Positions 34,164 to 63,432 of a stretch of DNA of 64,000 nucleotides are shown in pieces. The translations under genes and the position numbers were made by a program. Within the stretch, counting starts at the first letter, position 1. Every line of letters starts with the position of its first letter. Under the pieces are notes generated by a model. The model was given only the letters and a program-made list of their open reading frames with translations. It ran no database searches and had not been told where the DNA came from. Location of the stretch: the NCBI GenBank assembly GCA_018971045.1, contig JAGWVF010000001.1, forward strand, positions 75,480-139,479. The letters are read 5' to 3'. Origin of the DNA: Patescibacteria group bacterium (GTDB lineage Bacteria > Patescibacteriota > Minisyncoccia > Phycocordibacterales > Phycocordibacteraceae).

Positions 34164-35846
34164 TTAACGCGGGAGATTGACCGTCGCGATGACCTCCGAG
34201 AGGGAAGTGGCGCCCGCGAGCGCTTTCAGCACCCCGTCTTGGGCCATCGTGAGATATCCTTGTTTTTCGGCGAGTTTCGCAATTTCATTCTCGGGAGGAT
34301 TATCGCGGAGGAAAGAGGCGAGCTCGTCGTCCATAAAGACGGCTTCATAGAGTCCGACGCGGCCGTGATAACCGGTTTCATCCTCGCTTGCGGGCGCGGG
34401 CTCCCACGTGGTCTCGATTTTCTCTGGGAGAAGCGAGACATCGGTAATAGTAGAAAGGATTTTATGGATCAGTTCTTTTTCGTCAGCGGTCAGCGGACGT
34501 TGTTTCTTCTTTTTCGGATCGAGTTTGCGCACCAGCCGCTGTGCCATCGAGACGGTGACTGCCGAACCGAATGATTTAGGGTCGGCGCCGAGATCAACGA
34601 GGCGGGGGAAGGTTCCTGCGGCATTGTTCGTGTGGAGCGTCGAGAAAACGAAGTGGCCGGTAAGCGCCGCCTGAATCGCAATATTCGCGGTCTCGCCGTC
34701 GCGGATCTCGCCGACCATGATGATGTCCGGGTCCTGGCGCACGATCGATCTCAATCCCTCGGCAAACGTGTATTTTTCACCCGCCACCTGCGTCTGCACG
34801 ATCCCGTCAAGGTGGTATTCGACGGGATCTTCAATCGTAATAATTTTTATCTCCGGCGTATGGATCTCGCGGAGGAAGGAGTAGAGAGTCGTCGTTTTGC
34901 CGCTTCCCGTTGGTCCGGTGGTGAGAAGCATTCCATTTGGCCGCCGGATCTCAGACTCGAGGCGCGCGAGAAGCTTCGGATGAATGCCGAGATCCCGATA
35001 CGAGACCATCGTCGCCTCCGGGTCGAGAATACGCATCACGATCGACTCCCCGAAGTTTCCGGGAATGAACGATACGCGGATCTCAACCTGGTTCGATCCT
35101 TTCATCACGGAGAAGCGGCCATCCTGCGCCTGATGAGTGATATTAATCTTCACGCCCGAGAGGAGCTTGATGCGCGAATTAAATTGGCGGAAGATTTCGT
35201 GTTCAAAAAGATAGGTATCCGAGAGAATGCCGTCGATGCGGAGCCGCAATAACACCTTCTTTTCCCCCGATTCAAAATGAATGTCAGAAGCACGGAGCGC
35301 AAATGCTCCGGCCATCACGATTTCAAAGAGGCGGGAGATGCGATCAAGCGGCTTGAGTTCGAGCGCCGCGTCGAGTTCTTCCTTAACGGCGGTCTTGGTG
35401 CCGCCGCGCTTCGCGATAGCCGCGAGCGCTTCTTCAGAAACCGAGAGAACTCCTGCTTTTTTTGCCACTGCGAACGAGAGATCATGATAGCGGTCAAAAG
35501 CTTTTTCGAGGCTCTTCTTCGACGCGAGAAAAAATGAAGAGGAATAGCCGCGCTCGCGAAGTTCATTCACGAGCTTCGCGAGCGCGGGCGTGTCGGGATT
35601 GCGGACGGCGAGCGAGAGCGCCTTGGCCGTCTTCGCGAAGGCGGCCGCATCGGCCTCGCGCGCTTGCGCTTCGGGAATGACGCGCAGTGCGTCGCTGTCG
35701 ATTTCCCTAAGCGAGAGATCGACGTACGGAAGGCCGTACTTCTCAGAGATGATGCGCGCCACGTCCTCCTCCTCGCGCTCGCGGATCTCTGTAATCTTGG
35801 AGTTCTCCTCTTCGGTATTAAACGGTAAATCCATAGCGAGCATCAT
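34164..35846 (-). CDS. second GspE/PilB-family secretion ATPase
   Basis: Walker A GPTGSGKTTTLYSFL, DPDIIMVGEIRD, FVFSTLHTN; 560 aa paralog of pilB. Confidence 0.85.
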   Translation of the reverse strand: MMLAMDLPFNTEEENSKITEIREREEEDVARIISEKYGLPYVDLSLREIDSDALRVIPEAQAREADAAAFAKTAKALSLAVRNPDTPALAKLVNELRERGYSSSFFLASKKSLEKAFDRYHDLSFAVAKKAGVLSVSEEALAAIAKRGGTKTAVKEELDAALELKPLDRISRLFEIVMAGAFALRASDIHFESGEKKVLLRLRIDGILSDTYLFEHEIFRQFNSRIKLLSGVKINITHQAQDGRFSVMKGSNQVEIRVSFIPGNFGESIVMRILDPEATMVSYRDLGIHPKLLARLESEIRRPNGMLLTTGPTGSGKTTTLYSFLREIHTPEIKIITIEDPVEYHLDGIVQTQVAGEKYTFAEGLRSIVRQDPDIIMVGEIRDGETANIAIQAALTGHFVFSTLHTNNAAGTFPRLVDLGADPKSFGSAVTVSMAQRLVRKLDPKKKKQRPLTADEKELIHKILSTITDVSLLPEKIETTWEPAPASEDETGYHGRVGLYEAVFMDDELASFLRDNPPENEIAKLAEKQGYLTMAQDGVLKALAGATSLSEVIATVNLPR

Positions 35847-35987
35847 ACCACTTCACTGAGGCGGTTTGGACGGGGGCTGATATGATATTGACCAGAAGTA
35901 GAAATAGTGTATAGTATCATTGAGGATGGCTTTCCGTTTAGGATTTCCCGAAAACGCAGCTATTTCCTCGTGAAGGAGATGGATGGT

Positions 35988-36143
35988 ATGAATGCAAACA
36001 AGTCCGCTGCTTCGGTAGCACCAGCAACAGGCACAGTTCCACTCGCTTTCGATCTGGCTGTCGTCGCTGAGCCGCAGGAAGGGGATCACGAGTTGATTTC
36101 TACTCCGACTGGTAGCGGATATCCGCCGGAGGACGATGCCTGA
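35988..36143 (+). CDS. putative graspetide (omega-ester/amide RiPP) precursor peptide
   Basis: 51-aa ORF MNANKSAASVAPATGTVPLAFDLAVVAEPQEGDHELISTPTGSGYPPEDDA; AAGGAG RBS 9 nt upstream; stop 14 nt before the ATP-grasp ligase; C-terminal T/S...YPPEDD resembles microviridin-type core logic. Confidence 0.4.
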   Translation: MNANKSAASVAPATGTVPLAFDLAVVAEPQEGDHELISTPTGSGYPPEDDA

Positions 36144-36157
36144 CGGGGCCGCATGCC

Positions 36158-36856
36158 TTGAATGAAGAGGACGGTTGTCGCATGCGACCGTCCTCTCTAC
36201 GTACCCTCATGCGTTTAAGGAGAAAGAATGATTCTCATATGGACATGCCGGGGGATAAGACGGTCGATTGGTTCATCGATCGATATCTGGTCCGAAGTGG
36301 ATTGTCATGGGTCCGGTTTGATTCCGACGCTTTCCCTGAAAACTACAAGATCGATGGAGGATTAGACCGCGTGCTCATACATGATCAGTACGGAGAGATG
36401 GTTCTTAACTCAACAGAAATATCTTCGGTGTGGTATCGAAGGAATCTGCCAAGCGTATTCCAAGCGACAGTGCTCGCGGCTGATGTCTTGGGGTACGCAC
36501 GCTCCGAAGCTCAAGCAGCATTGCGCGCACTCAACACGGCCTTATCTGGCGCGTACTTTGTGAATAAACCAGATGCCAATCACACTGCCTCAGACAAGCT
36601 CGGCCAATTGTTGGATGCGAGTGCGAGGGGGCTGCGAGTACCAAAAACGCTCATCACCAACGATAAGTCACTCGCATTGGAGTTCGTGGATACTTGCGGT
36701 GGCGAGGTGATTGTCAAACCGCTGCGTAAAGGAACAATCGCTCCGGGCAAGGTCTTCTACTCAACTCTTATAAGAGCTGTCGACCTGGAAACACGCGGGA
36801 ACGCGATTGCCATCGCACCCGTAATTTTCCAGGAGCCGATTAAGAAAGCCTATGAA
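36158..36856 (+). pseudogene. MdnC/MdnB-type graspetide ATP-grasp ligase, N-terminal 2/3 (disrupted by IS30 insertion)
   Basis: RFDSDAFPENYKIDG, EISSVWYRR, VIFQEPIKKAYE follow microviridin ligase MdnC almost position by position; the reading frame runs into the IS after ...KKAYE. Confidence 0.7.
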
Positions 36857-37972
36857 TGTAGTTTCAAGAATATAATGCAACACCCGTTGCCTTGAAGAAT
36901 ACCTCCTCAGGAGTGAGTCCGCCATGTCGTCTGCGTGGCCGGGTGTTGATCAGATACTCAGCACGCGCAATCTCCTCGCCAGTGAGCAGTGCGAGATCAG
37001 TTTTCTTCGGGAAGAACCTTCTGATGAGTCCATTGGTATTCTCGTTGGTACCACGCTCATGTGAACAGTATGGGTGAGCGAAGAACACATCGAGTCCGAG
37101 CGATTGCTCAACCTCTTGCCAGCGCAGATTCTCTTTTCCTCGATCACGAGTGAGTGTCTTGCGAACTGATGAAGGGAGTGCTCCCAGCCGATGGATGAGC
37201 ACGGCATCACAGTTCTCGGCGGTACCATCATCCGTCTTGCCAAAGAGGGTGACGCCGCTCCTGCGTTCCGTGACATTCTTGATTCTCGCTAGAGAAGCTC
37301 GCGACACGAGCGTATCATCCTCCCAGTCGCCAATGCGAGAACGTTTCTCGACGACGAGCGGGCGTCTCTCTATGGACGGCAGTGAAGCATCGCGTTCGGC
37401 TTTCTGTACTTTCCTGAAGCCCTTTTTCGCTCTTTGCTTGTGTCGCCTTGCAAGGTACGGCCGCAGATCAAGCGTGCCTTTCTTCACCGCGCCATTGCCG
37501 CCCCGATACACTCTTCGGTATACCTCCTGATATATGGTCTCGGGAGCCACGCGCATGCGTGAGTCATTGGGGAATTCGATCGGCAGTCGCAAGCTCACCT
37601 GCTCGGGTGACCATCGCTCATCGCGCATCTTCGTCTCAATATATGACCGCAATAGTTCGTGCTTCACCGTTTTCGGCACATTGCCACGACTACCGATACG
37701 ATCCAACGCCTTCGCATGGGCACGATCGGCATCATATTTCCCGCTGCCGATCCGGGGCTTTCCATCGAGCTCACGAGAGATTGAGCTCTTATTCCTTCCC
37801 AGTTCGTCTGCGATCTCGGTGACCGTCCTGCCATCTCGACACCACCGAAGCTCGATGATGCTTCGTTCTCTGAGTGAAAGGGGTTTGCCACCTCGTCTTT
37901 TCCTCTGTTTCTTCTGCATACCCAATCAGCTTACCTGCTAATGGGGTGTTGCAATTAATTCTGGAACTCATG
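36857..37972. mobile_element. IS30-family insertion sequence (~1.1 kb) inserted in the ATP-grasp ligase gene
   Basis: Imperfect terminal inverted repeats (left tgtagtttcaaGAATATAATGCAACACCC, right rc catgagttccaGAATTAATTGCAACACCCC), 3-bp direct repeat GAA at 36854-36856 and 37973-37975; contains an IS30 transposase. Confidence 0.7.
36864..37925 (-). CDS. IS30-family DDE transposase
   Basis: N-terminal HTH (RERSIIELRWCRDGRTVTEIADELGRNKSSISREL), DDE region (IGDWEDDT...HPYCSHERGTNENTNGLIRRFFPKKTDL). Confidence 0.85.
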   Translation of the reverse strand: MGMQKKQRKRRGGKPLSLRERSIIELRWCRDGRTVTEIADELGRNKSSISRELDGKPRIGSGKYDADRAHAKALDRIGSRGNVPKTVKHELLRSYIETKMRDERWSPEQVSLRLPIEFPNDSRMRVAPETIYQEVYRRVYRGGNGAVKKGTLDLRPYLARRHKQRAKKGFRKVQKAERDASLPSIERRPLVVEKRSRIGDWEDDTLVSRASLARIKNVTERRSGVTLFGKTDDGTAENCDAVLIHRLGALPSSVRKTLTRDRGKENLRWQEVEQSLGLDVFFAHPYCSHERGTNENTNGLIRRFFPKKTDLALLTGEEIARAEYLINTRPRRRHGGLTPEEVFFKATGVALYS

Positions 37973-37975
37973 GAA

Positions 37976-38296
37976 CTGAGGATTGCAGTGGTGGACGAAG
38001 AGTGCTTCGGGGTAAAGATCTTTTCCCAGGAGCACGGAATTACTTCTATCGACTGGCGCAGATCCCCGTTGCTCATCAGGCATGAGATTGCAGAACTACC
38101 TCAACATATTGCTTCGGCATGTGTCGAGATGGTGAAGGCAAGCGGTCTGGTCTATAGCGCTTTTGACTTCATTGTCTCTCCCGAGGGAGAGCACGTCTTT
38201 CTTGAGCACAATCCAGGAGGTCAATTCGCATGGTTAGAGGAATTGACGGGTATTCCGATTGGTCGCGGACTCCTCGGTGCTCTGAGCAAGTCGTGA
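37976..38296 (+). pseudogene. MdnC/MdnB-type ATP-grasp ligase, C-terminal third (resumes in frame right after the IS)
   Basis: LRIAVVDEECFGVKI...IDWRR...AFDFIVSPEGEHVFLEHNPGGQFAWLEELTG matches the MdnC C-terminus; removing IS plus one GAA copy restores ...KKAYELRIAVV... (340 codons). Confidence 0.7.
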
Positions 38297-38315
38297 TAAA
38301 TAGCAGTATAATTGA

Positions 38316-38996
38316 GTGGCGAGCATGCTCGCCACTCCTCATTTCATACTCTCCATGAATTTTAAAAGAAACGCTCAAGAAAAGTTTAATACTCTCTTTG
38401 AGAGGGAACTTACAAATTATAAATACGCAGAAGGAGTCAAGAAACTGCAAACTTTCCTGGACACCCATAGCTTTCTTAAAGAGAATCCAGAAAATCTGAC
38501 CAAATTGGGCCTCCTGTACGACCACGCAGCGATGGTCGACAAGAAAGATCAGAAATCACTTGAAGGTAAAGCGAGAGGGAATTACAAAAAAGCACTGAGT
38601 CTCAACAGCATTTTTCCACCTGCGTGGTGGGGTCTCGCCAGAATTTATTGGCACAATGGCGATAAGCGCGCGGTACCCCTCGCACTAAAAGCGTATCGAT
38701 ATGCGAAGGCGGCTGCACGTAAAGATGATGGCCAGTATGCTCAAAATATAGGACTTGTATACCATAAGTTGGGCAATAACCGACGTGCTAAATATTGGCT
38801 TGAGCGAGGAGTCGCCAAGTCTCCACGTGAGTGGGGCGTCCATTATAATTTGATGCGATTTTATTTGGATACGCAAAACCACAATGCTGCAAGGAAATCA
38901 GCAAGAAAAGTGCTTTCGCTACTCACAAACGAGAAAAATAGTCAGTGGACCAAAGATGTGCGTAGGCTGGCAGAGGCGACACTTGCCGGCCTTTGA
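38316..38996 (+). CDS. tetratricopeptide-repeat (TPR) protein
   Basis: 226 aa with repeated W/Y-LG-Y-A-P TPR-like helices; low-GC composition. Confidence 0.55.
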   Translation: MASMLATPHFILSMNFKRNAQEKFNTLFERELTNYKYAEGVKKLQTFLDTHSFLKENPENLTKLGLLYDHAAMVDKKDQKSLEGKARGNYKKALSLNSIFPPAWWGLARIYWHNGDKRAVPLALKAYRYAKAAARKDDGQYAQNIGLVYHKLGNNRRAKYWLERGVAKSPREWGVHYNLMRFYLDTQNHNAARKSARKVLSLLTNEKNSQWTKDVRRLAEATLAGL

Positions 38997-39076
38997 CGCT
39001 CTCGCTCTCCGCAAAAGTGGAGGTCAAATAGGAGAGTTTGACTTCCCCAATACCACATTCCGAGCGGATGGTAAGC

Positions 39077-39106
39077 TTGACAAAGTTGTCATATTAGCGG
39101 TATAAT
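39077..39106 (+). promoter_or_regulatory. near-consensus sigma70-type promoter
   Basis: TTGACA (39077-39082), 18-nt spacer, TATAAT (39101-39106), ~25 nt upstream of the small lipopeptide ORF. Confidence 0.4.
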
Positions 39107-39131
39107 AAAAAAAGATAAAAGGAGATCCTGA

Positions 39132-39308
39132 ATGAAGGTATTTTTTGTTTTCTCCGCCCTCCTGACGCTCCTGGTGATTTCCGGGTGCATGATTGTTCCA
39201 CCGGCGCCAAATACGTGTTCGGTGATGATAGTACAGCGTGGCAACAATGTTGTTGCCACGCGGAATGGCCCCTGCGGCCATTCCTACTATATGCAGTGGG
39301 GCCGGTAA
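39132..39308 (+). CDS. small secreted Cys-containing lipoprotein/peptide (58 aa)
   Basis: MKVFFVFSALLTLLVISGC lipobox signal then MIVPPAPNTCSVMIVQRGNNVVATRNGPCGHSYYMQWGR; AAAGGAG RBS 8 nt upstream; below the ORF-track length cutoff. Confidence 0.4.
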   Translation: MKVFFVFSALLTLLVISGCMIVPPAPNTCSVMIVQRGNNVVATRNGPCGHSYYMQWGR

Positions 39309-39311
39309 ATC

Positions 39312-39355
39312 GCGCCCGTTTCCGCAAGGAAACGGGCGCGCACTCATTTTTGACG
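39312..39355 (+). terminator. rho-independent terminator
   Basis: gcgcccgtttcc-gcaa-ggaaacgggcgc perfect hairpin followed by a T run (ctcattttt). Confidence 0.55.
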
Positions 39356-45416: not shown

Positions 45417-46742
45417 ATGACAAAGCACGATCTAAAGATAGAGTACGTGGCGCTCTCCTCCCTCCGCCACCCTGAACGAAATCCTCGCATATGGTCGAAG
45501 GAGGCGACCGCACAACTCAAAGAAAGTATCGAACAAAACGGAATCGTTGACCCGCTCATCGTGAACAATGCGCCAGAGAGAAAAGGAATCATCGTCGGTG
45601 GAAATTTTCGCGCAGAGGTCTTGAAAGAAATGGGGTATGACACGGTGCCGGTCGTATACGTGAATATCCCTGATCCCGCGAAAGAAGCTGCTCTCATAAT
45701 CCGCCTCAATAAGAACACTGGGGACTGGGATCTCAACTTGCTTGCTGAATTCGATTCCTTTCTACTCTCTGGCATTGGATTCACCTCCGAAGAACTGGAT
45801 GGGATATTTCCAGCTGAGGAGAATCCTGAGGTGTTCGACCTCCAGCGCGAACTCGCCAAACTCGAAATTACGAATGTCGATATCAAGCCCGGCGACAAGT
45901 TCGCATTCGGCGATTCATTCGTACGGTGCGGCGACAGCATGAGTGAAGCAGACATGCTCGCGCTCATGGGTGGCGAGCAGGCGGATATGGTGTGCACAGA
46001 TCCTCCGTACATACTTGATTATCTCAAAGGGAAAAAGAAGCAGGATGGCAAGGTGACTGAAGGATTCGGTCTGAAACGTGATCGCATCTATCTCGGCACA
46101 ACATCGCTCCCAGACAATTTCAGCGACCTATGGATGGCAGCCGTGGCGAAAGTGCAGAAGCCAGACTTCTCGATTCTCATCTTCGAGCACCCCAAGAACC
46201 TGAAGACCATCTGGACCGCGCTTGAGAAGCATTGGAAGTACCGCAACACCATCACCTGGCACGTCCCGAATCGCGTCCAAGGATTCGCAGCTAAGCACAA
46301 GTTCTTTAACAAACAGGATATTGCTCTTGTGGGCACGGGCGGCGAAGTATCGCTCAATCTCGAAGCCGAGGACGAGTTGTTCCAGAACGAGTACGAGAAT
46401 GCGATTTATGCCACTTCGGGCAAACCGCACTTCGAGTCGTACGAGAAGGGCAAGAAAATCTGCCCCACAGACTTCATTGAACATATCGCTGCCGATGCAA
46501 AATCCTCGGGCCAAAGCATTATCTTCGGCACGAAACCAATCGAGCTACTCATCCCGTACATCAAGGTGCTCACAAAGCGTGGCGACATCGTACTTGAGCC
46601 ATTTGGGGGTAGTGGTTCAAGTGCCGTGGCCGCATGGAAGCTCGGCCGACGATTTTTCCTGATGGAAAAATCGCCCGTGTACACGGCTGTCATCTTGAAA
46701 AGGCTCGAGAAGGTTACCGGCATCAAGCACAAGAAGGTATGA
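45417..46742 (+). CDS. ParB-like nuclease domain fused to N6-adenine/N4-cytosine DNA methyltransferase (phage-type)
   Basis: N-terminal ParB motif (GIVDPLIVNN, GGNFRAEV); MTase motif IV TDPPY and motif I EPFGGSGSS. Confidence 0.8.
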   Translation: MTKHDLKIEYVALSSLRHPERNPRIWSKEATAQLKESIEQNGIVDPLIVNNAPERKGIIVGGNFRAEVLKEMGYDTVPVVYVNIPDPAKEAALIIRLNKNTGDWDLNLLAEFDSFLLSGIGFTSEELDGIFPAEENPEVFDLQRELAKLEITNVDIKPGDKFAFGDSFVRCGDSMSEADMLALMGGEQADMVCTDPPYILDYLKGKKKQDGKVTEGFGLKRDRIYLGTTSLPDNFSDLWMAAVAKVQKPDFSILIFEHPKNLKTIWTALEKHWKYRNTITWHVPNRVQGFAAKHKFFNKQDIALVGTGGEVSLNLEAEDELFQNEYENAIYATSGKPHFESYEKGKKICPTDFIEHIAADAKSSGQSIIFGTKPIELLIPYIKVLTKRGDIVLEPFGGSGSSAVAAWKLGRRFFLMEKSPVYTAVILKRLEKVTGIKHKKV

Positions 46743-49449: not shown

Positions 49450-49610
49450 GGTTTGCTGGTCGCGATTTGTAATGCCCGGAGGAGAGACGCACTGAACCCG
49501 CCACCGGGTGGGTCTTGCGACCCGACAAGGATTTCTCCCTGCCACGCGACCAGCGTTCCCCGATGACGGGTTCAGTACGCTGGTCGCGATTTTCGGCCAT
49601 GCCGGGAGAA
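49450..49610 (-). promoter_or_regulatory. structured 5' leader with alternative helices (putative attenuator/riboregulator)
   Basis: Minus-strand leader carries AATCGCGACCAGCG ... CGCTGGTCGCG ... AATCGCGACCAGC (segment 2 can pair with 1 or 3; segment 3 ends ~6 nt before the ATG), plus CTGAACCCG/CGGGTTCAG and a duplicated ATCCTTGT. Confidence 0.3.
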
Positions 49611-49902
49611 TCACAAGGATCCTCAAGCCGGTTTAGGCCTCTTTATTCGGTTTACAAGAACATGATAGCTCATTCGGGACTATCGTTGTAGACCCTAGCT
49701 TAGTATTGGAGGCTTGCGAAGGTGGTAGCTTTGCGTCCTTATGTAGGGCTCGGAATTCTGGTTCCGCACCCCTTCTGTTCCTGGTGGATTTGTGTGTGGT
49801 GAATGTTGAAAGTGGCAAGGTCATGGAATTGCCTGTGCGGGGTACCTAATCAGCTACTCATTTCGATATAAATCTGGTAAACTACAGGTAAGTTGGATTT
49901 AC

Positions 49903-50103
49903 ATGTCAAATCGCAAACAAATACCCAAAGACGAGATTATTACCCTGCAAGAGGCGTGCGAGATTTTCAATAGTCATTTGAATACGCTTCATAACGGGGA
50001 CAACAAAAAGGATACTTTAAGCGGTTTGTTTTGGTATGAGACGTGTCCAGAAATATCGAAAAGTTCAGGTGCTAAATCTTTTACGCAAAAGAAAATGATA
50101 TGA
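49903..50103 (+). CDS. small hypothetical protein at 5' edge of the AT-rich gene cluster
   Basis: 66 aa; first ORF after the GC drop; no family recognised. Confidence 0.3.
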   Translation: MSNRKQIPKDEIITLQEACEIFNSHLNTLHNGDNKKDTLSGLFWYETCPEISKSSGAKSFTQKKMI

Positions 50104-51614
50104 ACTTCTTTACTTCAGCTCGTCGAAATAGGGAACCTGCGGCATCATTTGTTGTTGAATCAACTGGATCAGTATTTACCTACTCCCATTTAGATGCGTT
50201 ATCAGCTCAATTCGTCAACACTCTTGTCAAGCTTGGAGTAAGAAAAGGAGATAGGGTAATGGTATGTGCAGAAAAAAGCCTAGAAGCATTAGTAGTGTAT
50301 ATTGCTTGTTTGCGCGCAGGGTTTATTTTTGTACCAATTAATCCAGCATACACCAAAGCCGAATTAGAGTATTTTATTACAGATGCGCGCCCTGCGATAA
50401 TTATTGTTGATCCAGATAAGAAGAAAGACATCCATTCAATTCCACGAGCACTAAATATGCTTATTGAAACTCTTGGGGTGGATGGGAGAACAGGATCCTT
50501 CTTAGAGAAGGTAAGAGAAATGCCTGCCAAGTTCAACGATGTTGAATGTGATGATGATGATTTGGCAGCAATAGTCTATACGTCTGGAACAACCGGGAGG
50601 TCTAAGGGTGCAATGATTAGCCATAATAACCTGCGATCAAATGCGGAGGCACTTTGTCAAAGTTGGCGATTCTCAAATTCGGATGTGTTACTTCACGCAC
50701 TACCGATTTTCCATGTCCACGGACTTTTTGTTGCAACTAATGTAACACTTACAGCGGGCTCATCAATGATCTTTCTTCCCAGTTTTGAGGTTAATGAAGT
50801 CATCAGTCATTTGCCGCGTGCCACAGTTATGATGGGCGTGCCAACCTTCTACACTCTACTTCTGCAGGATGGACGGCTTACGCGGGATTTGGTCGAGCAT
50901 ACTAGATTATTTATTTCCGGTTCGGCCCCGTTATTGGTGGAAACACATAGAGAGTGGTTGGAGAGAACGGGGCATGAAATATTGGAGCGCTATGGCATGA
51001 CAGAGGCCGGCATGATAACTTCCAATCCTTATAATGGAGAACGTGTTCCTGGTGCAGTTGGATTTCCTCTGCCAGGCATAATTCTGCGCATAGTCGATCA
51101 GAACACCAAGGAACTTCTAGCTAATGGTCAAGTTGGCTCAATTGAAATCAAAGGGCCTAACGTTTTTAAGGGATATTGGCAAATGCCGGAAAAGACCAAG
51201 GATGAATTTCGAGAAGATGGTTTCTTTGTGACTGGTGATTTGGGGTTTATAGACGACAAAGAGTATGTTCATGTCATAGGTAGGCAGAAAGATTTAATCA
51301 TTACATGCGGACTTAATGTATATCCTAAAGAAATAGAGGAAAATCTTAACAAGATTCTCGGAATAACTGAAAGTGCTGTCATAGGCGTGCCGCATCATGA
51401 ATTTGGGGAAGGTGTTGTTGGGGTGGTAGTCAGTAAAAAGCACAACTTGTCAGAAGAGCAAATATTAGTTGAATTAAAGAAGAATCTGGCACCTTATAAA
51501 ATCCCACTAAAGATATTTCTGGTTGACGTACTCCCAAGAAATATTATGGGAAAGGTCCAGAAAAGCGCCTTGCGGGCATCGTACAGTAATTTATTTACGC
51601 GAAAATATGAATAG
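50100..51614 (+). CDS. matB: malonyl-CoA synthetase (MatB-type acyl-CoA synthetase)
   Basis: AMP-binding motifs YTSGTTGRSKGAM, ...ALPIFHVHGLFVATNVTL..., GPNVFKGYW, GKVQK; long stretches near-identical in pattern to rhizobial MatB as recalled. Confidence 0.8.
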   Translation: MNFFTSARRNREPAASFVVESTGSVFTYSHLDALSAQFVNTLVKLGVRKGDRVMVCAEKSLEALVVYIACLRAGFIFVPINPAYTKAELEYFITDARPAIIIVDPDKKKDIHSIPRALNMLIETLGVDGRTGSFLEKVREMPAKFNDVECDDDDLAAIVYTSGTTGRSKGAMISHNNLRSNAEALCQSWRFSNSDVLLHALPIFHVHGLFVATNVTLTAGSSMIFLPSFEVNEVISHLPRATVMMGVPTFYTLLLQDGRLTRDLVEHTRLFISGSAPLLVETHREWLERTGHEILERYGMTEAGMITSNPYNGERVPGAVGFPLPGIILRIVDQNTKELLANGQVGSIEIKGPNVFKGYWQMPEKTKDEFREDGFFVTGDLGFIDDKEYVHVIGRQKDLIITCGLNVYPKEIEENLNKILGITESAVIGVPHHEFGEGVVGVVVSKKHNLSEEQILVELKKNLAPYKIPLKIFLVDVLPRNIMGKVQKSALRASYSNLFTRKYE

Positions 51615-53069: not shown

Positions 53070-53864
53070 ATGCTTGAAAATGTTTTGGAGCTAAAGAATT
53101 TGCCAATTCCGCAACCAGGTTTTGATGTTGAATTGGTCAGAAATTATCAAGGTGTGAAGATCAATAAGGAAGGTTCGTTCTTCCGAGAAGAATTAGTTGA
53201 TATTCGAACCCTTGGTGTGAAGGGGTTGAACTACTATAATTCCACCTTCAATCCACCTTACTATCAATCCATTCCTGGATCTATTTCTTCATTGAAAGTG
53301 CGTAAGACAGTAGCTGAGAAGCTAGCGGCAGTAAATGAGAAGTTAAAAACAATCGGCCTCGAAATTTTTGTTTTTGATGCTTTCCGGCCGCTTGCTGTTC
53401 AGAACTATTTTTATTATGAGTGGGTCCCACGATATTTGCGCTCGATATATCCAGATAAAGATGAATTGTGGATTCTCCAGGAGTCCAATGCCTATTGGGC
53501 TAAGGGGGCCAGAAACAAAGATGAGCTATTGGCGTCTGCTCCGCCACATTCGACTGGTGGAGCGGTGGATATGACGTTTTGTTTTAAGGAGACGGGACAT
53601 TTGCTTGAAATGGGATCCATTTTTGATGATATAACAGAAAAATCCCACACTATTTTCTTCGAAAAAGATTTGGATCTCAAGAGCTTTACGGCCACAGAAG
53701 CGATGAAGAATCGTCGATTACTTTATCACCTGATGACGACGGAAGGGTTCGCTTCTCACCCGAAAGAATGGTGGCACTTCAGTTATGGGGATCAAATGTG
53801 GGCATTAATTACTAACCAGGCTGAAGCATTATATGGTTATGCAGGCAATGACTTCCAAACATAA
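53070..53864 (+). CDS. VanX-family D-Ala-D-Ala dipeptidase (peptidase M15D)
   Basis: Zn-ligand motifs SAPPHSTGGAVDMTF (SxHxxGxAxD) and KEWWHFSYG (EWWH); start moved to MLENVLELK. Confidence 0.75.
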   Translation: MLENVLELKNLPIPQPGFDVELVRNYQGVKINKEGSFFREELVDIRTLGVKGLNYYNSTFNPPYYQSIPGSISSLKVRKTVAEKLAAVNEKLKTIGLEIFVFDAFRPLAVQNYFYYEWVPRYLRSIYPDKDELWILQESNAYWAKGARNKDELLASAPPHSTGGAVDMTFCFKETGHLLEMGSIFDDITEKSHTIFFEKDLDLKSFTATEAMKNRRLLYHLMTTEGFASHPKEWWHFSYGDQMWALITNQAEALYGYAGNDFQT

Positions 53865-54636
53865 ATTCTGGCAGATTACGCCCCGTTTCTCGCCAGACAC
53901 AAAAAGTCTGATGGATGTTTGCGTTCATATCGCTCGGGTTCCCACAGACGGCTTGCTGTTGGAGGATTGTCTTAAAGTTTTGGACAGAACAGAACGTGAG
54001 AGAGCGCAGTCTTTTCGATTTGTCGAGGACAGAAATGCCTATATTACCGCACACGCATTACTGCGTTTTGCAATGAGCCATCGTTCCCGAGTTCTTCCAG
54101 AAGATTGGATTTTCAGAACATCACCTTCAGGGAAGCCGGAGCAAATTAATCTGCCAGGGCAGATGTATTTCAATATATCCCATACGCGAGGAATGGTCTG
54201 TTGCGCGTTATCCTCCACTAGTGTAGGAGTCGACATAGAAAATATTGATGCGCTGAGTAATTTTGGAAACCTGGATCCCCTCTTCAACAAGGAGGAAATC
54301 AATGAGGTCAGTTGTTTACCGGAACGGGACAGGAATTTCCGGTTTATAATTTACTGGACTCTACGAGAATCTTTGCTCAAGGGCACGGGAGAGGGAATTG
54401 GCGGTATTTCAAGGGACTTCTCCTTTTTTGTTAGTGACAATAAGGAAATCTTCCTCAAGGAGGCACGGCACCCTTCTTTACTGAACGGGTGGAAATTTGC
54501 CACTTTTCTGGTTGATAACCATTACATTGTTTCGGTTTCTACGTGTAATCTTACTAATAAGACTCAGAATATTTATCCGAATTTTAGAGGTGAGGTCGAG
54601 CTGATTGGTGCGTCGCAATATATCAAATCTTTTTGA
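53848..54636 (+). CDS. Sfp-type 4'-phosphopantetheinyl transferase
   Basis: PPTase motifs FNISHTRG, GVDIENI, WTLRESLLKGTGEG. Confidence 0.8.
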   Translation: MTSKHKFWQITPRFSPDTKSLMDVCVHIARVPTDGLLLEDCLKVLDRTERERAQSFRFVEDRNAYITAHALLRFAMSHRSRVLPEDWIFRTSPSGKPEQINLPGQMYFNISHTRGMVCCALSSTSVGVDIENIDALSNFGNLDPLFNKEEINEVSCLPERDRNFRFIIYWTLRESLLKGTGEGIGGISRDFSFFVSDNKEIFLKEARHPSLLNGWKFATFLVDNHYIVSVSTCNLTNKTQNIYPNFRGEVELIGASQYIKSF

Positions 54637-54648
54637 ATTCATAGTCAT

Positions 54649-55491
54649 ATGAACTATTTATCTTCAGAAACATTCGGGGCGGGCGACCTAAACTCAATTG
54701 GATATTTATATCGCCTTGTAGACTTTAAGAACAGGATTGAACTCATTCCCGCCTGTACAGAAAACAATGAAAAATTTATTGCGACAATGACAGAATTGTG
54801 GGCCTTTCTAACGTCCATAGAGGATGATGATGTCATCATTGAATTGCAGGGCGATAAACGATTTCCGTTAGTTCAGCAATATCTGGCTAAAAAATGGCAC
54901 GAGTATATAAGTATCATTGAAACCGATGAGGCCGAGAGATTTCTCTCGAAGACAGATTCCAAAGAGGCTAATTCAATGCTAGCTGAGGAAGACTATATGG
55001 GCGTGAATTATGAATTATCGCTACTCAGCGAAAAATTAACAGGCCTTAGCGTAATCATGGTTGGCTGCGGCCCGTTTCCAGAGACACTAATGGAAGTTTA
55101 TAAAGACAATAAGGATATAAAGTATGCAATCGGAATTGAGGGGAGAAATGACGTATCGCAGCTTGCAAATAGGATTGTCACGAAGGTATTCCCAGGTGTC
55201 GAGAATGTCAAAGCAGTAGCATCGGATGCGGAATCATTTGATTATAGAGATGCTGATGTTATTTTTCTTGCTAATGGACTAATAAAGAAGGACTTAATTC
55301 TCCAAAGAATCTACGATACCGCAAAGGATGGCGTAAAAATTTTAGCCAGAAACCCAATCTTGATGGGCAGGTTGTTTTACGAGGATCTATACTCTTTGCC
55401 TTCCATCCAGTACTTTGTTATTTGCGGTTCGGTAAGGGCAAGTAAATTGAGTGAAACTATTTTGTTCAGGAAGCGTGATAAAATTATATGA
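54649..55491 (+). CDS. nicotianamine-synthase-like (CntL/NAS family) SAM-dependent 3-amino-3-carboxypropyl transferase
   Basis: VIMVGCGPFPETL (cf. NAS VAFVGSGPLPLTS), DADVIFLANGL, VKILARNPILMGRLFY align with conserved NAS blocks by eye. Confidence 0.5.
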   Translation: MNYLSSETFGAGDLNSIGYLYRLVDFKNRIELIPACTENNEKFIATMTELWAFLTSIEDDDVIIELQGDKRFPLVQQYLAKKWHEYISIIETDEAERFLSKTDSKEANSMLAEEDYMGVNYELSLLSEKLTGLSVIMVGCGPFPETLMEVYKDNKDIKYAIGIEGRNDVSQLANRIVTKVFPGVENVKAVASDAESFDYRDADVIFLANGLIKKDLILQRIYDTAKDGVKILARNPILMGRLFYEDLYSLPSIQYFVICGSVRASKLSETILFRKRDKII

Positions 55492-57362
55492 CTAACGCAT
55501 GCTCGCATTTCTTTAAATGTGCCTCAAAATGGCCTAACAAAACGGCACTGGTTTTTGATTGTCAAGAAATAAGCTATAAGGACTTAGCAGATCGTGCGAA
55601 TGTTCTCGCTCACAGGCTAAACATTCTTGGGGTTAAGAGCGGGACTCTTGTTGGGGTGTATCTTCCCAGATCAGTTGATCTAATAGCATCAATACTCGCC
55701 GTATTGAAGATTGGCGCTGGATACGTTCCTCTCGACGTTTCTCTTCCAGAGGGACGTATCAAATACATCCTATCTAATTCTGGAGTGAAAGTTGTTGTCA
55801 CAAGCAGGGAACCTGGTTCAAAAAATACAGCCCCCATTATTGAGGGGGTAGGGTTACTGTATGTAGATGATCTAATGGCCTCTCATTTCAATGAGACGGA
55901 GATAGCAGAGGGGAAGACTGCTTACGTGATGTATACCTCAGGGTCTACTGGTTTGCCAAAGGGGGTTCAAATGGGACATAGTGTGCTTATTAATTTAGTT
56001 GAGTGGCAAAGTAAGGTCACCAATATTTCCGATGGCATTACATTACAGTATGCGCCAGCAAGCTTCGATGTCTCTTTCCAAGAAATATTTTCCACCCTCT
56101 CATTTGGTGGGACTTTGATCTTGTGCAATGAAGACACTCATCGTGATCCAGAGAGGTTGTTGTACCTAATTGCATCTGAAAAGATTGAAAGGATTTTCCT
56201 GCCTTTCATTGCGCTTCAGCAGTTGGCAGAAATTGCGCAAATAGGACAGGTCCCCAGCAACTTGCGTGAGGTGATTACTGCAGGTGAGCAGCTACGAATC
56301 ACCCCAGCGATAAGGGCCTTCTTCAAAGCATCGCAGGATTGTAGGTTAATCAATCAGTACGGCCCAACAGAAACTCATGTAGTCACAGCCTACGAGCTTT
56401 TGGGAGACCCGGTGCGGTGGCCGCCCTTGCCTCCGATTGGGAAACCAATACAGAATGTTCAGGGATTTATATTCGACGAATTCAAACAGGAGGTACTAGC
56501 TGGTGAGATTGGTGAGTTGTATATTGGCGGAACCTGTTTGTCGGAGGGGTACATTAATAATCCATCTCTTACTGATGCCAGTTTTGTCCAACACCCTCTC
56601 TCGGGAGAGAGATTATATAAGACCGGGGATCTCGCACGACTTCTTGAAGACGGGAATCTTGAATTTGTGGGAAGAAAGGATAACCAGGTTAAGATACGGG
56701 GATATAGAATTGAACTGGGAGAAGTTGAGATAGTACTGGCCGAGCATCCAGCTATACGAGAGTGTGTTGTTGACGCAAGAAAAGATGTTTTTGACCGGAC
56801 TAAGCTAGTGGCGTATCTTGTAATTCGAGAAGAATATAAGATGCGTTTAACATCCACCCTATATGACGGTGCCGAATGGACTTCTTTTTTAAGAGAAAGA
56901 GTGCCTGATTATATGATTCCCTCAACGTTTATAGTGTTATCGTCCTTACCACTCACTACAACAGGGAAGGTCGACCGAAAATCTCTTCCAACCCCATCAA
57001 AACAAAGGCCGGAACTCGTGTCTACTTGGGTGGCGCCTGGAAATGAAATGGAAATGAAAATAGCCAAGACCTGGAGAAATGCACTTGAATTGAATGACGT
57101 CGGTGTAAATGACAATTTCTTCGAAATTGGCGGCAATTCTTTACTTGTCGCGTTTGTGCAGCAAGAACTCATGCAGGTGCTGTCAACAAAAATTTCGGTC
57201 GCTGATCTATTTCAATACCCGACTATCCGATCCCTTGCAGAAGAGATAGAAAACCGGCGGAATACCCCTTATACGCACAAACCGCTCTATGGTCACCCGA
57301 AAACAGGCAATCTTTCGCCCGCATCGAAGAGAATAAACGCAAGAAAACGTTATGAGAAGTGA
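55488..57362 (+). CDS. stand-alone NRPS loading didomain (adenylation + peptidyl carrier protein)
   Basis: A-domain cores (YTSGSTGLPKGV, FDVS, GELYIGG, YKTGDLAR, GRKDNQVKIRGYRIELGEVE, TGKVDRKSL) and PCP motif FFEIGGNSLL; no C or TE domain. Confidence 0.85.
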   Translation: MTNACSHFFKCASKWPNKTALVFDCQEISYKDLADRANVLAHRLNILGVKSGTLVGVYLPRSVDLIASILAVLKIGAGYVPLDVSLPEGRIKYILSNSGVKVVVTSREPGSKNTAPIIEGVGLLYVDDLMASHFNETEIAEGKTAYVMYTSGSTGLPKGVQMGHSVLINLVEWQSKVTNISDGITLQYAPASFDVSFQEIFSTLSFGGTLILCNEDTHRDPERLLYLIASEKIERIFLPFIALQQLAEIAQIGQVPSNLREVITAGEQLRITPAIRAFFKASQDCRLINQYGPTETHVVTAYELLGDPVRWPPLPPIGKPIQNVQGFIFDEFKQEVLAGEIGELYIGGTCLSEGYINNPSLTDASFVQHPLSGERLYKTGDLARLLEDGNLEFVGRKDNQVKIRGYRIELGEVEIVLAEHPAIRECVVDARKDVFDRTKLVAYLVIREEYKMRLTSTLYDGAEWTSFLRERVPDYMIPSTFIVLSSLPLTTTGKVDRKSLPTPSKQRPELVSTWVAPGNEMEMKIAKTWRNALELNDVGVNDNFFEIGGNSLLVAFVQQELMQVLSTKISVADLFQYPTIRSLAEEIENRRNTPYTHKPLYGHPKTGNLSPASKRINARKRYEK

Positions 57363-60300
57363 TACAAACAATCGAATAAAGGAAACTGACATTGCAATAA
57401 TAGGCATGTCTTGTCGTTTTCCGGGTGCTCAAAATGTAGAAGTATTTTGGGAAAATTTAAAAAATAGCAAGGAGTCCATTTCATTTTTCACTAATGACGA
57501 ATTGGAAAATGGGGACAAGGAGATAGTAAAAGATCCACACTTTGTTAAAGCTGGCTCCGTATTGGATGAAGTGAAATCTTTCGACGCTGGTTTCTTTGGT
57601 TTTTCTGAACAAGACGCAAAGATTTTAGATCCTCAGCACCGGAAGTTCCTTGAGTGTTCATGGGAAGCGTTGGAGGATGGGGGATACAACCCCGACGTCT
57701 TTAAAGGAAGCATCGGTGTTTTTGGCGGTTCAGGTATGAGTACGTATTTTTTGAATAACGTCCATCCGAACATCGGATACCATCCAAATCGGACGTTCCT
57801 TGAATCAATGGGGGATTTGCAGCTATTAACAGCAAACGACAGGGATTATCTTACTACACGTGCTGCATACAAACTTAATTTGCGCGGTCCGAGTATTAAC
57901 GTACAAACAGCCTGTTCCACTTCATTAGTCGCAGTTCATCTTGCATGCCAAAGTATTCTGAACGGAGAGTGTGATATGGCTCTTGCAGGGGCGGTAACAA
58001 TCTTGTGTCCGCAAAAAACCGGCTATTTATATCAGCAGGACATGATTCTTTCCCCTGATGGCCATTGTCGCCCATTTGATGCGAAGGCAAAAGGAACAGT
58101 TTTCGGTAGCGGTGTAGGGGTCATACTGCTCAAAAGATTTTCCGATGCAATCCATGATGGGGACGCTATTCATGCAGTCATTAAGGGAACGGCAGTAAAT
58201 AATGATGGGGCAGTTAAAGTGGGGTATTCTGCGCCAAGCGTAAATGGACAATCGGCAGTAATTGAAGAGGCTATGGCGGTTGCCGATGTTGAACCGACGA
58301 ATGTTACTTACATTGAGGCACACGGGACGGCAACACAGATTGGTGATCTTGTGGAAGTCACAGCGCTTAAACAGGCGTTTCAAACTGAAAAAAGAAATTT
58401 TTGTGCACTCGGTAGCGTAAAATCGAATGTTGGGCACCTTGCTTGGGCTTCAGGGATGGCGGGGCTTATAAAAGTTATTCTCGCGCTTAAACATAAAAAG
58501 ATTCCAGCTACTCTCAATTTCGAGAAGGCGAATTCTCAGATAGATCTTGAGAACTCCCCTTTCTATGTCAATGCCGACCTTGTTGACTGGGAGACAGACA
58601 GCACAAGAACCGCAGGAGTCAGCGCTTTTGGTCTTGGTGGCACAAACGCACACATAGTTTTAAGCGAGGTTTCGGGAGCAAAAACCTCTGATCTCAAAAA
58701 AGACGACAGTCATATTTTCACATTGAGTGCCAGAAACGAAGGGGATCTCAGAACGCTTGCTGAGCGATATGTACAATTCTTAAACAAAACAACAGAAGTG
58801 TCCTTAGTCGATATTTGCTATACGTCGAATATAGGTAGAAGGCACCTCGATAAGAGGTTGGGATTCGTAGTCTCATCGGTGTCTGAACTTCAAGAGAAGT
58901 TGCGGTGTTTCATTGATTGCGTTTCTATACAAAAATACGTTCAGTCACGACTACAAAGTAGTGCAGCAATACATATGAGCGAGAGGGCACAAGTATTGGT
59001 TCGTCTGGCACAACAGTATGAATCTGGTGTGAATGTTGATTGGGGGACTGTATATACCGGATGGGCGGGACAGAGAGTTCACATGCCAACCTACCCATTT
59101 CAACGAAATGAATACTGGATAGAATCTATTGCAAAACTCAGACCAGCACAGAGGAATGAACAGATGGACTTGGCGGGTAACCTGTATGATATGCAGTATG
59201 AAAAACTGCCGCTATACGGAAGCGCCTCACGATATCTACCAAGTGTTCAACAGCTAAGCAGGGAATTGAATAAGAGATTTAAGGAGATAGCCGTGTCGTC
59301 TGGAATGAAGGGCTACACTAAAGAGTTGAATTTGCTGGAGAAAATCAGTTACCAAATGATTATTAACGCTTTTGTTCAACTCGGCTGTAAGTTTGATGTA
59401 AAGAACATCACAACAGAAGAGTTCGTGCGGCGATTTAATGTAGTTCCTCAATACAAGAAACTCATAGATAGATTTTTTGAGATTCTTGAGGAAGAGGGGG
59501 TTGCGAGCCGGGATGATTTTCACTGGAAGTTGCTCAAAAAGCCAAAAATTGCGGACGTTTTATTAACAGGGCAGAAGCATAGTTTATGTGAATTTGATTT
59601 TCTAAATCGTTGTGGTTCTAATCTCGCAGATGTTCTGCGTGGAGTAAAAAGTCCATTGGATTTGCTGTTTCCAAATGGAGACACTTCTCTTCTAAAAAAG
59701 CTGTATAGTGAATCACCCACCCTGAAAGCAATGAATATGCTTGTCGCCGAAGCAGTTTCATTGCTGGAACAGAGTACTCCGAAAAAAATGGGTTTAAGGA
59801 TCTTAGAGATAGGCTCTGGGACTGGTAGTGCCACCGCATCTGTTTTGTCGAAACTCTCATCCAGTAAGACCGACTACACATTCACCGACTTATCAAACAG
59901 CTTCATATCGGAAGCGAAAAATAATTTTGTAGATTATTCTTGCATATCATATGCGCAGCTTGATATAGAAAAAACCCCAAGTACCCAAGGTTTTTCTGAG
60001 GAGAAGTATGATGTAATTATTGCTGCAAATGTTTTACACGCGACTCAAGATTTGAGGGGGGCCATTTCTAATGTCAATAAATTATTGGCTCCTGGCGGAA
60101 TATTGATCCTTCTTGAAGGAACGGCACCTGTACGTTGGGTCGATCTCACCTTTGGTTTAACAGATGGGTGGTGGCATTTTACTGATTATGACCTAAGATC
60201 TCGCTATCCACTTTTACCGCCCAAAGAATGGGAAAGGGAATTGCTAAATCATGGCTTTGCTGAGGTAGAAACTCTGACGTCAGAGGAAATTGGTTCCTCA

Positions 60301-63300: not shown

Positions 63301-63432
63301 GATTATTATGAAGGAGAAATGAGGTTCAATTTTTGGTACCATTCACATCGCTTCTTTAAGAAGCAGGTTCAAGAGTGGGCTGATAGATATTCAGATCTTC
63401 TCAAACAAAATATACAGTCACTAGAAGGCTAA
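57352..63432 (+). CDS. hybrid PKS-NRPS megasynthase, AT-less: KS - flanking subdomain - C-methyltransferase - KR (Tyr->His) - ACP - condensation domain
   Basis: KS triad (TACSTSLVAVH, EAHGTATQIGD, KSNVGHL); no GHSxG acyltransferase motif anywhere; cMT LEIGSGTGSAT; KR Rossmann TGGLGGLG but GQSNHASAN instead of NYAAAN; ACP DYGMDSLTS; C-domain His motif HIQHLEFDG; 2026 aa. Confidence 0.9.
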   Translation: MRSDTNNRIKETDIAIIGMSCRFPGAQNVEVFWENLKNSKESISFFTNDELENGDKEIVKDPHFVKAGSVLDEVKSFDAGFFGFSEQDAKILDPQHRKFLECSWEALEDGGYNPDVFKGSIGVFGGSGMSTYFLNNVHPNIGYHPNRTFLESMGDLQLLTANDRDYLTTRAAYKLNLRGPSINVQTACSTSLVAVHLACQSILNGECDMALAGAVTILCPQKTGYLYQQDMILSPDGHCRPFDAKAKGTVFGSGVGVILLKRFSDAIHDGDAIHAVIKGTAVNNDGAVKVGYSAPSVNGQSAVIEEAMAVADVEPTNVTYIEAHGTATQIGDLVEVTALKQAFQTEKRNFCALGSVKSNVGHLAWASGMAGLIKVILALKHKKIPATLNFEKANSQIDLENSPFYVNADLVDWETDSTRTAGVSAFGLGGTNAHIVLSEVSGAKTSDLKKDDSHIFTLSARNEGDLRTLAERYVQFLNKTTEVSLVDICYTSNIGRRHLDKRLGFVVSSVSELQEKLRCFIDCVSIQKYVQSRLQSSAAIHMSERAQVLVRLAQQYESGVNVDWGTVYTGWAGQRVHMPTYPFQRNEYWIESIAKLRPAQRNEQMDLAGNLYDMQYEKLPLYGSASRYLPSVQQLSRELNKRFKEIAVSSGMKGYTKELNLLEKISYQMIINAFVQLGCKFDVKNITTEEFVRRFNVVPQYKKLIDRFFEILEEEGVASRDDFHWKLLKKPKIADVLLTGQKHSLCEFDFLNRCGSNLADVLRGVKSPLDLLFPNGDTSLLKKLYSESPTLKAMNMLVAEAVSLLEQSTPKKMGLRILEIGSGTGSATASVLSKLSSSKTDYTFTDLSNSFISEAKNNFVDYSCISYAQLDIEKTPSTQGFSEEKYDVIIAANVLHATQDLRGAISNVNKLLAPGGILILLEGTAPVRWVDLTFGLTDGWWHFTDYDLRSRYPLLPPKEWERELLNHGFAEVETLTSEEIGSSIKIDGGLPQAVILAKKNSTVYQSTHQTWVIFADRSGTSDILIKRLTERGDNCIVVQRGDFFREEVANQKYTINLFRPEDFEDLFEHIQQPIHNVLYLWSLDEISDLISNLELLKRQYLQDCGGLLNTVKSILNKLPTPPALFVITQGAQCLDASSGLGGLLQSSVWGMHRVITVEHPELCCKIIDIESTKQVTDLVDELFARDKEHQVILKSDSRYVSRITRASVNLTSSGTQPLFKEDAVYIITGGLGGLGIKVAEWMAGIGARHIALVGRHEPTDDVKEKINLLIKKGIDIHVAKCDVSNYESLKSLFFNLKQIGPVKGIIHAAGVIDDGILLQQDFERLLKPAYAKVFGSWNLHILSQDESINLDFFILFSSVVSTIGNVGQSNHASANSFMNNLALYRKYQGLPATVIQWGAWADIGTLAKYPDVVEKLNTIGFGLIQPAEGVKVLEFILRKGITAAIFAPINWERFLKFNKSEETHLFASLVSSSQRKPEELFVENFVSRLALLTGAEQLALIERKVAENVSRILGLQQESGFEDKDFFDYGMDSLTSIQLRNNLQSDFKCSLHPTLAYKYPTVRKLSEYIVSVVRLDSRSGIISTNQKEFTSVSGTREISMQQRRWIRLAAKDYGRLLVPILFHAELNKKAFLSALEQVVNRHEVLKYRFLNDQAFVVDAGTFLLNDPELFVDASNETDQALVIKQQADNLRFSPPDPRDRPTWMIRCIRLNKDKFLVLLHIQHLEFDGASISIFVDDLRMFYSDFVNGIDATYLPAVQYADYVEWQKHYLNSDISEDREFFKKLFSDTLSSTILPNHSGRSSTESYPSACYTPSQIKGLWRKLQAVGKKMKTSPFAILCSTYAQLVGEIVNNDHVVIGTIVSSRPSCEFERTIGPFVQPFPMKISLNDPLRDMISTVHTLVTEINERSGYPVADMINHIPAFKEMEIDTYFTDSFIMLNNYSREADTQPRVEVFESLGPILEDGLSGISPKKINEIAGLFLIVDYYEGEMRFNFWYHSHRFFKKQVQEWADRYSDLLKQNIQSLEG

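Follow-up and report, generated by a model that had tools for sequence, protein, structure and literature searches.

This report concerns a graspetide-type gene cluster in a 64,000-nucleotide stretch of a metagenome-assembled genome (MAG) labelled 'Patescibacteria group bacterium' (GenBank assembly GCA_018971045.1, contig JAGWVF010000001.1, positions 75,480 to 139,479 of the forward strand), hereafter called the window. Graspetides are macrocyclic peptides of the protease-inhibitor type, and bacteria of the candidate phyla radiation (CPR) have tiny genomes and depend on hosts. On the plus strand of the window a precursor peptide gene is followed by a hairpin, by an ATP-grasp ligase gene that is split by 1116 bp and by a gene encoding a tetratricopeptide repeat (TPR) protein. 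The first-pass annotation of this DNA had proposed a two-gene cluster of precursor and ligase, inactivated by an insertion sequence (IS) of the IS30 family. The conserved TPR gene also belongs to the cluster, which thus comprises three genes, and the ligase gene carries a further lesion, a 1-nt deletion in a run of G, which that annotation had missed. The features of the locus are listed in window coordinates.

35888..35915, plus strand: promoter-like TTGACC-16-TATAGT 5' of the precursor gene, 10/12 matches in a consensus scan, putative function
35988..36143, plus strand: precursor peptide gene, 51 aa, recognised by its ribosome-binding site and by homologues at other loci
36167..36195, plus strand: GC-rich, perfect 12-13-bp hairpin between the precursor and ligase genes, found by fold computation
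36228..36856, plus strand: 5' part of the ligase gene, residues DKTVDW...KKAYE past the frameshift, placed by homologue starts, PF21068 and AAGGAG 5-7 nt before the ATG
36250..36254, plus strand: run of five G with a 1-nt deletion, frameshift at ligase codon 9-10, found by comparison with L001 and L002
36854..36856, no strand: target-site duplication GAA, left copy (single GAA in L028)
36857..37972, minus strand: IS30-family insertion sequence, 1116 bp, bounded by inverted repeats, L028 and contig ends
36864..37925, minus strand: intact IS30-family transposase open reading frame (ORF), start ATG 37919 (351 aa) or TTG 37925 (353 aa)
37973..37975, no strand: target-site duplication GAA, right copy (single GAA in L028)
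37976..38296, plus strand: 3' part of the ligase gene (LRIAVVDEE...GALSKS*), joined in frame to the 5' part
38325..38996, plus strand: intact TPR-repeat protein gene, 223 aa, with Pfam TPR matches and conservation in tblastn

Precursor peptide, ATP-grasp ligase and TPR protein

The precursor ORF encodes 51 aa (MNANK...LISTPTGSGYPPEDDA) with a leader ...VPLAFDLAV... and a core LISTPTGSGYPPEDDA. AAGGAG lies 9 nt 5' of its ATG, in agreement with the strong ribosome-binding site described before. The peptide has no match among Pfam or NCBIfam models, and a query against a 5.8-billion-protein collection, whose index does not reach short peptides, returned only itself. The precursor family was assembled from the loci around ligase homologues. 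At nine distinct loci (the window and eight with intact ligases) an ORF of 36-59 aa is found 64-98 nt upstream of the ligase start, in constant orientation and at constant distance. Common to these loci are the leader motif P[LI]AFxL and the core pattern [ST]-x-P-T-G-x-G-[YST]-P-[PS]-[EA]-(G)-D-D, as illustrated by the precursors of L001 (...PLAFEFAV...LISTPTGGGYPPEDDPA), L019 (...PLAFALAV...LISQPTGSGYPPEDDPG), L004 (PIAFLF...ITDPTGDGSPSEDDE) and L005 (PLPFRF...SVPTGPGTPPAGDDE). The core codons vary synonymously across loci while the peptide stays constant, which argues for selection on the peptide itself. Judged by its conservation, the small ORF is a real precursor, as the first-pass annotation had proposed.

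That annotation had also pointed to Thr/Ser donors and Glu/Asp acceptors in the core. This holds for the hydroxyl donors S38 and T41 and for the DD pair, which every locus keeps as candidate cross-linking residues; T39 and S43, though counted as donors before, are unconserved across loci. The core contains no Lys and would therefore form ester rings only and no lactam. Going by the conserved residues, the number of ester rings would be about two.

Between the precursor and ligase genes the intergenic RNA folds with -31.8 kcal/mol (z = -2.6). Comparable hairpins of unrelated sequence are present at the same position in L001, L002, L019 and L023, i.e. in five loci including the window. The hairpin may act as an attenuator or terminator-like element that sets the ratio of precursor to enzyme.

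Joining 36239-36856 to 37976-38296 yields an in-frame protein of 312 aa from ATG 36239. The joined ligase is matched by the NCBIfam models of ATP-grasp maturases of ribosomally synthesised peptides with post-translational modifications (RiPPs), namely TIGR04187 (1.7e-61), MvdC (9.5e-51) and MvdD (7.6e-46), and by PF21068, the MvdD pre-ATP-grasp domain (33.4 bits vs a cutoff of 27). Among PDB entries it matches AMdnB (1.3e-31), MdnB (5.2e-31) and MdnC (2.5e-30); together with CdnC and PruB these matches range from 1e-31 to 6e-22, whereas RimK and LysX reach 2e-4 or worse. Identity to MdnB/MdnC-type ligases is 28-30%. For structure prediction we used P0001, the closest intact homologue (67% identical to the window ligase). 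Its AlphaFold2 model (predicted local distance difference test, pLDDT, 91.8) retrieves MdnC, AMdnB, CdnC, PruB, MdnB and PsnB as top PDB folds (template modelling score, TM, 0.74-0.84), ahead of RimK and LysX. These matches support the earlier assignment to an ATP-grasp ligase of the MdnC kind. Scores for MvdC (172.8 vs a cutoff of 425 bits) and MvdD (156.7 vs 475) stay below the microviridin equivalog cutoffs, so by sequence the ligase is MdnC-like in kind, yet outside the microviridin equivalogs.

Homologues of the ligase are 39-67% identical and all come from metagenomes or MAGs; the hosts named are Brennerbacteria, Saccharibacteria and 'Patescibacteria group'. Among 5.8 billion protein clusters there is no 100%-identical full-length ligase, the best intact match being 67%. 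Scans with the ligase alignment gave eight loci in genome contigs and six in metagenome contigs, the window's own genome not among them. The module family is small and seen almost only in metagenome bins of Patescibacteria/CPR.

The TPR protein has the same sequence as NCBI MBU6214341.1 (KGM48_00640, 'Patescibacteria group bacterium') and belongs to a family of only eight clusters in the large protein collection. In tblastn a homologue with 30-60% identity is found immediately 3' of the ligase at every locus with enough sequence (L001, L002, L023, L019/L011, L013 and L004/L012), and partial matches are present at L005 and L014. The AlphaFold2 model (pLDDT 94.7) shows a TPR solenoid made of helices only, similar to the peptide-binding TPRs of KLC, OGT and PilF. 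A fold search with it returned generic solenoids only (designed consensus TPR repeat proteins, KLC, PilF, OGT, MamA), which hint at no function other than the binding of peptides or proteins. Based on this model the TPR protein probably binds the peptide or the enzyme as a partner.

Frameshift and IS30-family insertion in the ligase gene

The ligase gene starts at ATG 36228 (MILIWTCRG), 84 nt past the precursor stop. The spacing of 14 nt given in the first-pass annotation arose from a mechanical TTG-started ORF (36158), in which the shifted frame was read back to the previous stop. The homologues start with MILIWTCRGDKT / MLLIW..., which corresponds to ATG 36228 of the window; P0001 starts with MILIWTCRGDKTVDW and P0002 with MILVWTCRGDKTVDW, and all homologues open with M-[IL]-L-[IVL]-[WI]-[TS]-C-x-x-D-x-T. 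In alignment A1 (14 sequences including the repaired window ligase) M1, L3 and D10 are invariant. AAGGAG lies 5-7 nt 5' of ATG 36228 and about 17 nt from ATG 36239.

The window reads TGC CGG GG- GAT AAG where L001 has TGC CGA GGT GAT AAA and L002 has TGT CGA GGT GAC AAA. This frameshift is seen against every homologue. The run of five G is also present in the Logan contigs L018 (SRR32006846) and L028 (SRR33452761); the latter carries the empty-site allele, which dates the frameshift before the IS and shows that both alleles share it. Translation from ATG 36228 in the window would give an out-of-frame peptide of 45 aa. Residues 2-6 of the P0001 model form strand beta-1 (pLDDT 96). According to this model the frameshift detaches the conserved beta-1 (MILIW) and most likely destabilises the N-domain, which would abolish ligase activity. 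The ligase was probably already crippled before the IS arrived, and the IS was most likely not the sole inactivator that the first-pass annotation had seen in it, since the empty-site allele is already frameshifted at codon 9-10.

The second lesion is an insertion after Glu210, within the conserved K-x-x-E-L-R strand of the ligase. The transposase matches NCBIfam NF033563 (IS30) over the whole model (1-267/267) with 215.7 bits (cutoff 80, E 9.3e-64). Its N-terminus is an HTH_38 domain; for Pfam rve no match was reported at E<=0.1. The terminal inverted repeat is imperfect, 23 nt long and 83% complementary (36857/36863-36885 and 37944-37966/37972). The element resembles the IS30 family in its length of about 1.1 kb, in a single DDE transposase with an N-terminal helix-turn-helix, in imperfect inverted repeats of 20-30 bp and in a 3-bp duplication. 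Only one copy is present in the window. GAA flanks the element on each side, and removal of the element and one GAA restores the frame '...KKAYELRIAVVDEE...'.

This junction exists in nature. L028, a Logan contig from SRR33452761, consists of window 35972-36856 followed by 37973-39329, at 100% identity and with a single GAA. It is the pre-insertion allele and proves the IS boundaries and the 3-bp duplication. The insertion allele was recovered as L018 (35746-37972, SRR32006846), as L024 (36856-39298, SRR32006844) and as L026, which starts at 37944 (SRR32006837). The left IS junction was assembled in SRR32006846, the right junction in SRR32006844, SRR32006837 and SRR32006846. Contig ends at 37972 (L018) and 36856 (L024) agree with the IS boundaries, and contigs ending at the IS termini fit repeats of the IS elsewhere in those samples. 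Because empty-site and insertion alleles were assembled independently, the insertion is genuine, its ends are precisely defined, and it is both recent and polymorphic between samples. What had been deduced beforehand from the window, i.e. a clean and recent IS30 insertion after ...KKAYE whose excision restores the reading frame, is thus borne out by an otherwise identical allele in another sample. The search for an uninterrupted locus, proposed at the same time, found this allele, though frameshifted.

No intact ligase gene is left in the window genome, which carries both the frameshift (36250-36254) and the IS (36857-37972). The frameshift is present in every recovered assembly; the IS is present in some samples and missing in another. 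The 3' part of the ligase keeps the family-invariant E-x-R, DWR and FLEHNPxGQF motifs. Moreover, of 89 highly conserved columns the repaired 316-aa window ligase departs from the family at only 5, where intact homologues do so at 0-11; this fits recent inactivation.

Interpretation and genomic setting

The best explanation, to which we assign a probability of about 0.8, is a three-gene graspetide (omega-ester RiPP) module whose ligase is dead through two successive lesions and which is in early decay. By analogy to MdnC, CdnC and PsnB the leader P[LI]AFxL, of the 'Phhx(1,2)h' type, would dock on the ligase. With ATP the ligase would phosphorylate the acidic side chains E48, D49 and D50, of which the DD pair is invariant, and the hydroxyls of S38 and of T41 (in the invariant PTG) would attack and close about two macrolactone rings. 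The TPR protein would bind the peptide or the enzyme as a partner. Our inferences here extend to the chemistry and topology of the rings, to leader binding, to the function of the TPR protein and to the loss of activity through the frameshift. Of the two lesions the older is the 1-nt deletion in the G run at codon 9-10, putting the MILIW strand out of frame, and the recent one the IS30-family insertion after Glu210 with its GAA duplication. Early decay is indicated since the precursor and TPR genes are still intact.

Several points weigh against this explanation. For none of the family members has a product been observed, and no protease or exporter/transporter is conserved across the loci. 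The NCBIfam scores are far under the curated cutoffs, even for TIGR04187, the best-scoring model (208.2 vs 350 bits); scores this far under the cutoffs of the named graspetide-ligase models indicate a distinct subfamily. Finally, ATG 36239 still gives a 312-aa protein with every catalytic motif, which gene callers accept, and residual ligase function of this product prior to the IS insertion is conceivable.

It is on this last point that a different history could be built, in which the frameshift was harmless, ATG 36239 served as the start of a functional 312-aa enzyme and the ligase worked until the IS landed. L028 has the uninterrupted 312-aa ORF, accepted by the gene caller, the invariant catalytic residues are all kept and the conserved columns show no excess of substitutions. 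We consider this history unlikely, given that the 13 close homologues all start with M-[IL]-L-[IVL]-[WI]-[TS], that this segment is beta-1 of the N-domain, modelled with high confidence, and that AAGGAG is spaced for ATG 36228 and not for 36239; ribosomes initiating at 36228 would produce the 45-aa out-of-frame peptide.

That the frameshift, the IS junctions or both are artefacts of assembly or sequencing and that the real genome has an intact ligase is very improbable. Homopolymers invite errors on some platforms, and chimeric joins at repeats can occur in MAG contigs, but the run of five G recurs in L018 and L028 from two sequencing runs, the IS junctions were assembled in the three runs given above and the 5.8 billion clusters hold no intact ligase closer than 67%. 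Hardly any credit can be given to the idea that the enzyme is a RimK/LysX-type ligase and the small ORF a chance or unrelated one. Weak matches to the RimK family (2.7e-12) and LysX (6e-6), and a precursor that no Pfam or NCBIfam model recognises, would be in its favour. Against it stand graspetide-ligase models and structures, whose scores are better by 30-50 orders of magnitude, a pre-ATP-grasp domain of the MvdD type and the conservation of the small ORF, with its Ser/Thr...Asp/Glu core, in nine loci.

Upstream of the three-gene module, a divergent type II/IV secretion ATPase gene occupies 34164-35846 on the minus strand (PF00437, 8e-103); downstream follow tsaE/polA from 39371. GC content of the cluster without the IS is 0.495, as compared to 0.523 +/- 0.057 for windows of the same size (26th percentile), and neighbouring housekeeping genes lie above it at 0.56-0.61. 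The segment had been described as lower in GC than the core genome, which does not hold as stated. The cluster is no outlier against the window mean and only the TPR gene (0.447) is clearly low, so that the idea of a low-GC island was dropped as not significant. Composition gives weak support for a foreign origin of the cluster. 3' of the TPR gene, all on the plus strand, are a perfect sigma-70 consensus TTGACA-18-TATAAT (39077-39106), a 58-aa ORF with a lipobox-like LLVISGC (39132-39308) that has no Pfam match, and a terminator with a 13-bp stem (39311-39340). This unit (39077-39340) is absent from the other graspetide loci.

A paralogue of the TPR protein, P0035 (MBU6214813.1, KGM48_03165; 155-161 aa), is encoded on another contig of the same MAG. 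It is 77% identical to TPR residues 62-221 and lacks the first ~60 codons; its sites are L030 4553-5038 and also L031 and L032. A second graspetide locus in this MAG was considered and rejected, as L030-L032 contain neither ligase nor precursor. P0035 is an orphan and looks like what is left of a second module copy that has already been deleted, not like a back-up. At the intact related locus L019 an S9/Tricorn-like peptidase, possibly a leader peptidase, is encoded just upstream of the precursor (2687-4483), and downstream, at L019 6591-9738, on a contig shared with L011 and L020, ThiF-like and nitroreductase-like genes may represent a second peptide-modification set.

Other observations concern distant parts of the window. 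Toward its end (53833-63432, plus strand) lies a line of polyketide synthase/nonribosomal peptide synthetase genes: a phosphopantetheinyl transferase (53833-54636), an adenylation plus carrier loading protein (55488-57362) and a 2026-aa ORF (57352-63432) with ketosynthase, CurL/RhiE-like linker, C-methyltransferase, ketoreductase, acyl carrier protein and Condensation domains. This ORF has no acyltransferase (AT) match and is trans-AT-like. A separate AMP-binding enzyme is encoded at 50100-51614. One would not usually expect such a line under the label 'Patescibacteria group bacterium', and binning or taxonomy may be at fault. A full-length LOOT RNA (Rfam RF03000) at 49510-49639 on the minus strand scores 70.2 bits against a gathering score of 46.4 and lies within the lowest-GC part of the window (about 0.41-0.45, 49-51 kb). 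At 45417-46742 (plus strand) a ParB-N domain is fused to an N6/N4 DNA methylase.

Comparison with known graspetide systems

Microviridins combine a leader PFFARFL with a core TxKxPSDx(D/E)(D/E), in which the Lys serves for the lactam. With the microviridin system (MdnA; MdnB, MdnC; PDB 5IG8, 5IG9, 7M4S) the window locus shares the ligase fold and domain order including the pre-ATP-grasp domain (E about 1e-30, TM 0.80-0.84), a short precursor just upstream, a hydrophobic leader motif beginning with Pro, and a Tyr-Pro-containing core in which hydroxyl donors precede acidic acceptors at the C-terminus. However, the microviridin pathway uses two ligases, MdnB making the lactam and MdnC the lactones, and the window locus has one. 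The leader is PLAFDLAV in place of PFFARFL, the core STPTGSGYPPEDDA has neither Lys nor PSD, and [ST]xPTGxGYPPEDD stands against TxKYPSDWEE of microviridin. Instead of a GNAT (GCN5-related N-acetyltransferase) or ATP-binding cassette (ABC) transporter gene, the cluster contains the TPR gene.

Graspetide loci have also been described in silico for CPR bacteria (Makarova et al. 2022, PMC8939145). Their precursors carry a leader signature Phhx(1,2)h, and TPR genes without an assigned role are often their neighbours; the same work raised the role of graspetides in these bacteria as an open question. CPR branches 1 and 2 of that study resemble the window locus in that the hosts belong to candidate phyla, one ATP-grasp ligase is present, the precursor is short and lies upstream, and TPR neighbours are frequent. 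The agreement concerns host group, leader motif and TPR neighbour. A precursor leader from Yanofskybacteria in that study, LPLTFEF, comes close to PLAFDL of the window. The core signature given there, TxxxTx(6-10)Dx(1-4)D, is not matched by [ST]xPTGxG.P...DD. Neither the name Brennerbacteria nor its accessions occur in the accessible part of the supplement text. Similarly, GYPPEDD, PPEDD, PTGGG, PTGPG and PTGDGSPSEDD were not found in those portions of the PMC8939145 and PMC13097080 supplement texts that could be searched, and there PTGSG occurs only inside unrelated Streptomyces ligase sequences. As the first-pass annotation had stated, the core is not a known one, as far as microviridin and these portions of the survey supplements go.

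Carter et al. 2026 (PMC13097080) list 43 graspetide groups, some from candidate phyla, and reported that a co-occurring non-enzymatic partner can be essential. Their rosaritide system (MirA/MirB/MirC) resembles the window locus in a strictly co-occurring non-enzymatic gene beside the graspetide synthetase and in a Pro-, Gly- and Asp-rich core with macrolactones only. The core motif of the window family does not occur in the accessible portion of their supplementary data. The rosaritide partner is SurA/PPIase-like (peptidyl-prolyl isomerase), whereas that of the window is a TPR solenoid, on which the ligase may depend. As a tentative possibility we suggest an undescribed, Patescibacteria-restricted group with the core [ST]xPTGxG[YST]PPxDD, a probably bicyclic di-lactone product and the TPR protein as an obligatory partner, in a symbiont lineage whose polymorphism would show it discarding the module. 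If this were true, a TPR-requiring synthetase would be a second, structurally different case of partner-dependent graspetide biosynthesis.

Against this background the earlier view of a decaying, possibly novel pathway stands with regard to decay, and its core was not found in the searchable parts of the surveys, but the frameshift predates the IS and the module comprises three genes. The locus is a decaying, already inactivated graspetide locus whose core motif is apparently undescribed, while the kind of system is known. IS insertions in secondary-metabolite genes are common, and no concept is changed by this one. With its non-functional copy, the window is of value mainly as a dated, stepwise loss, frameshift then IS, of which the empty-site allele is still circulating. 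It extends the known graspetide systems by a small family of precursors, apparently not catalogued so far, to which a TPR protein is strictly linked, and so supplies a three-gene set for expression.

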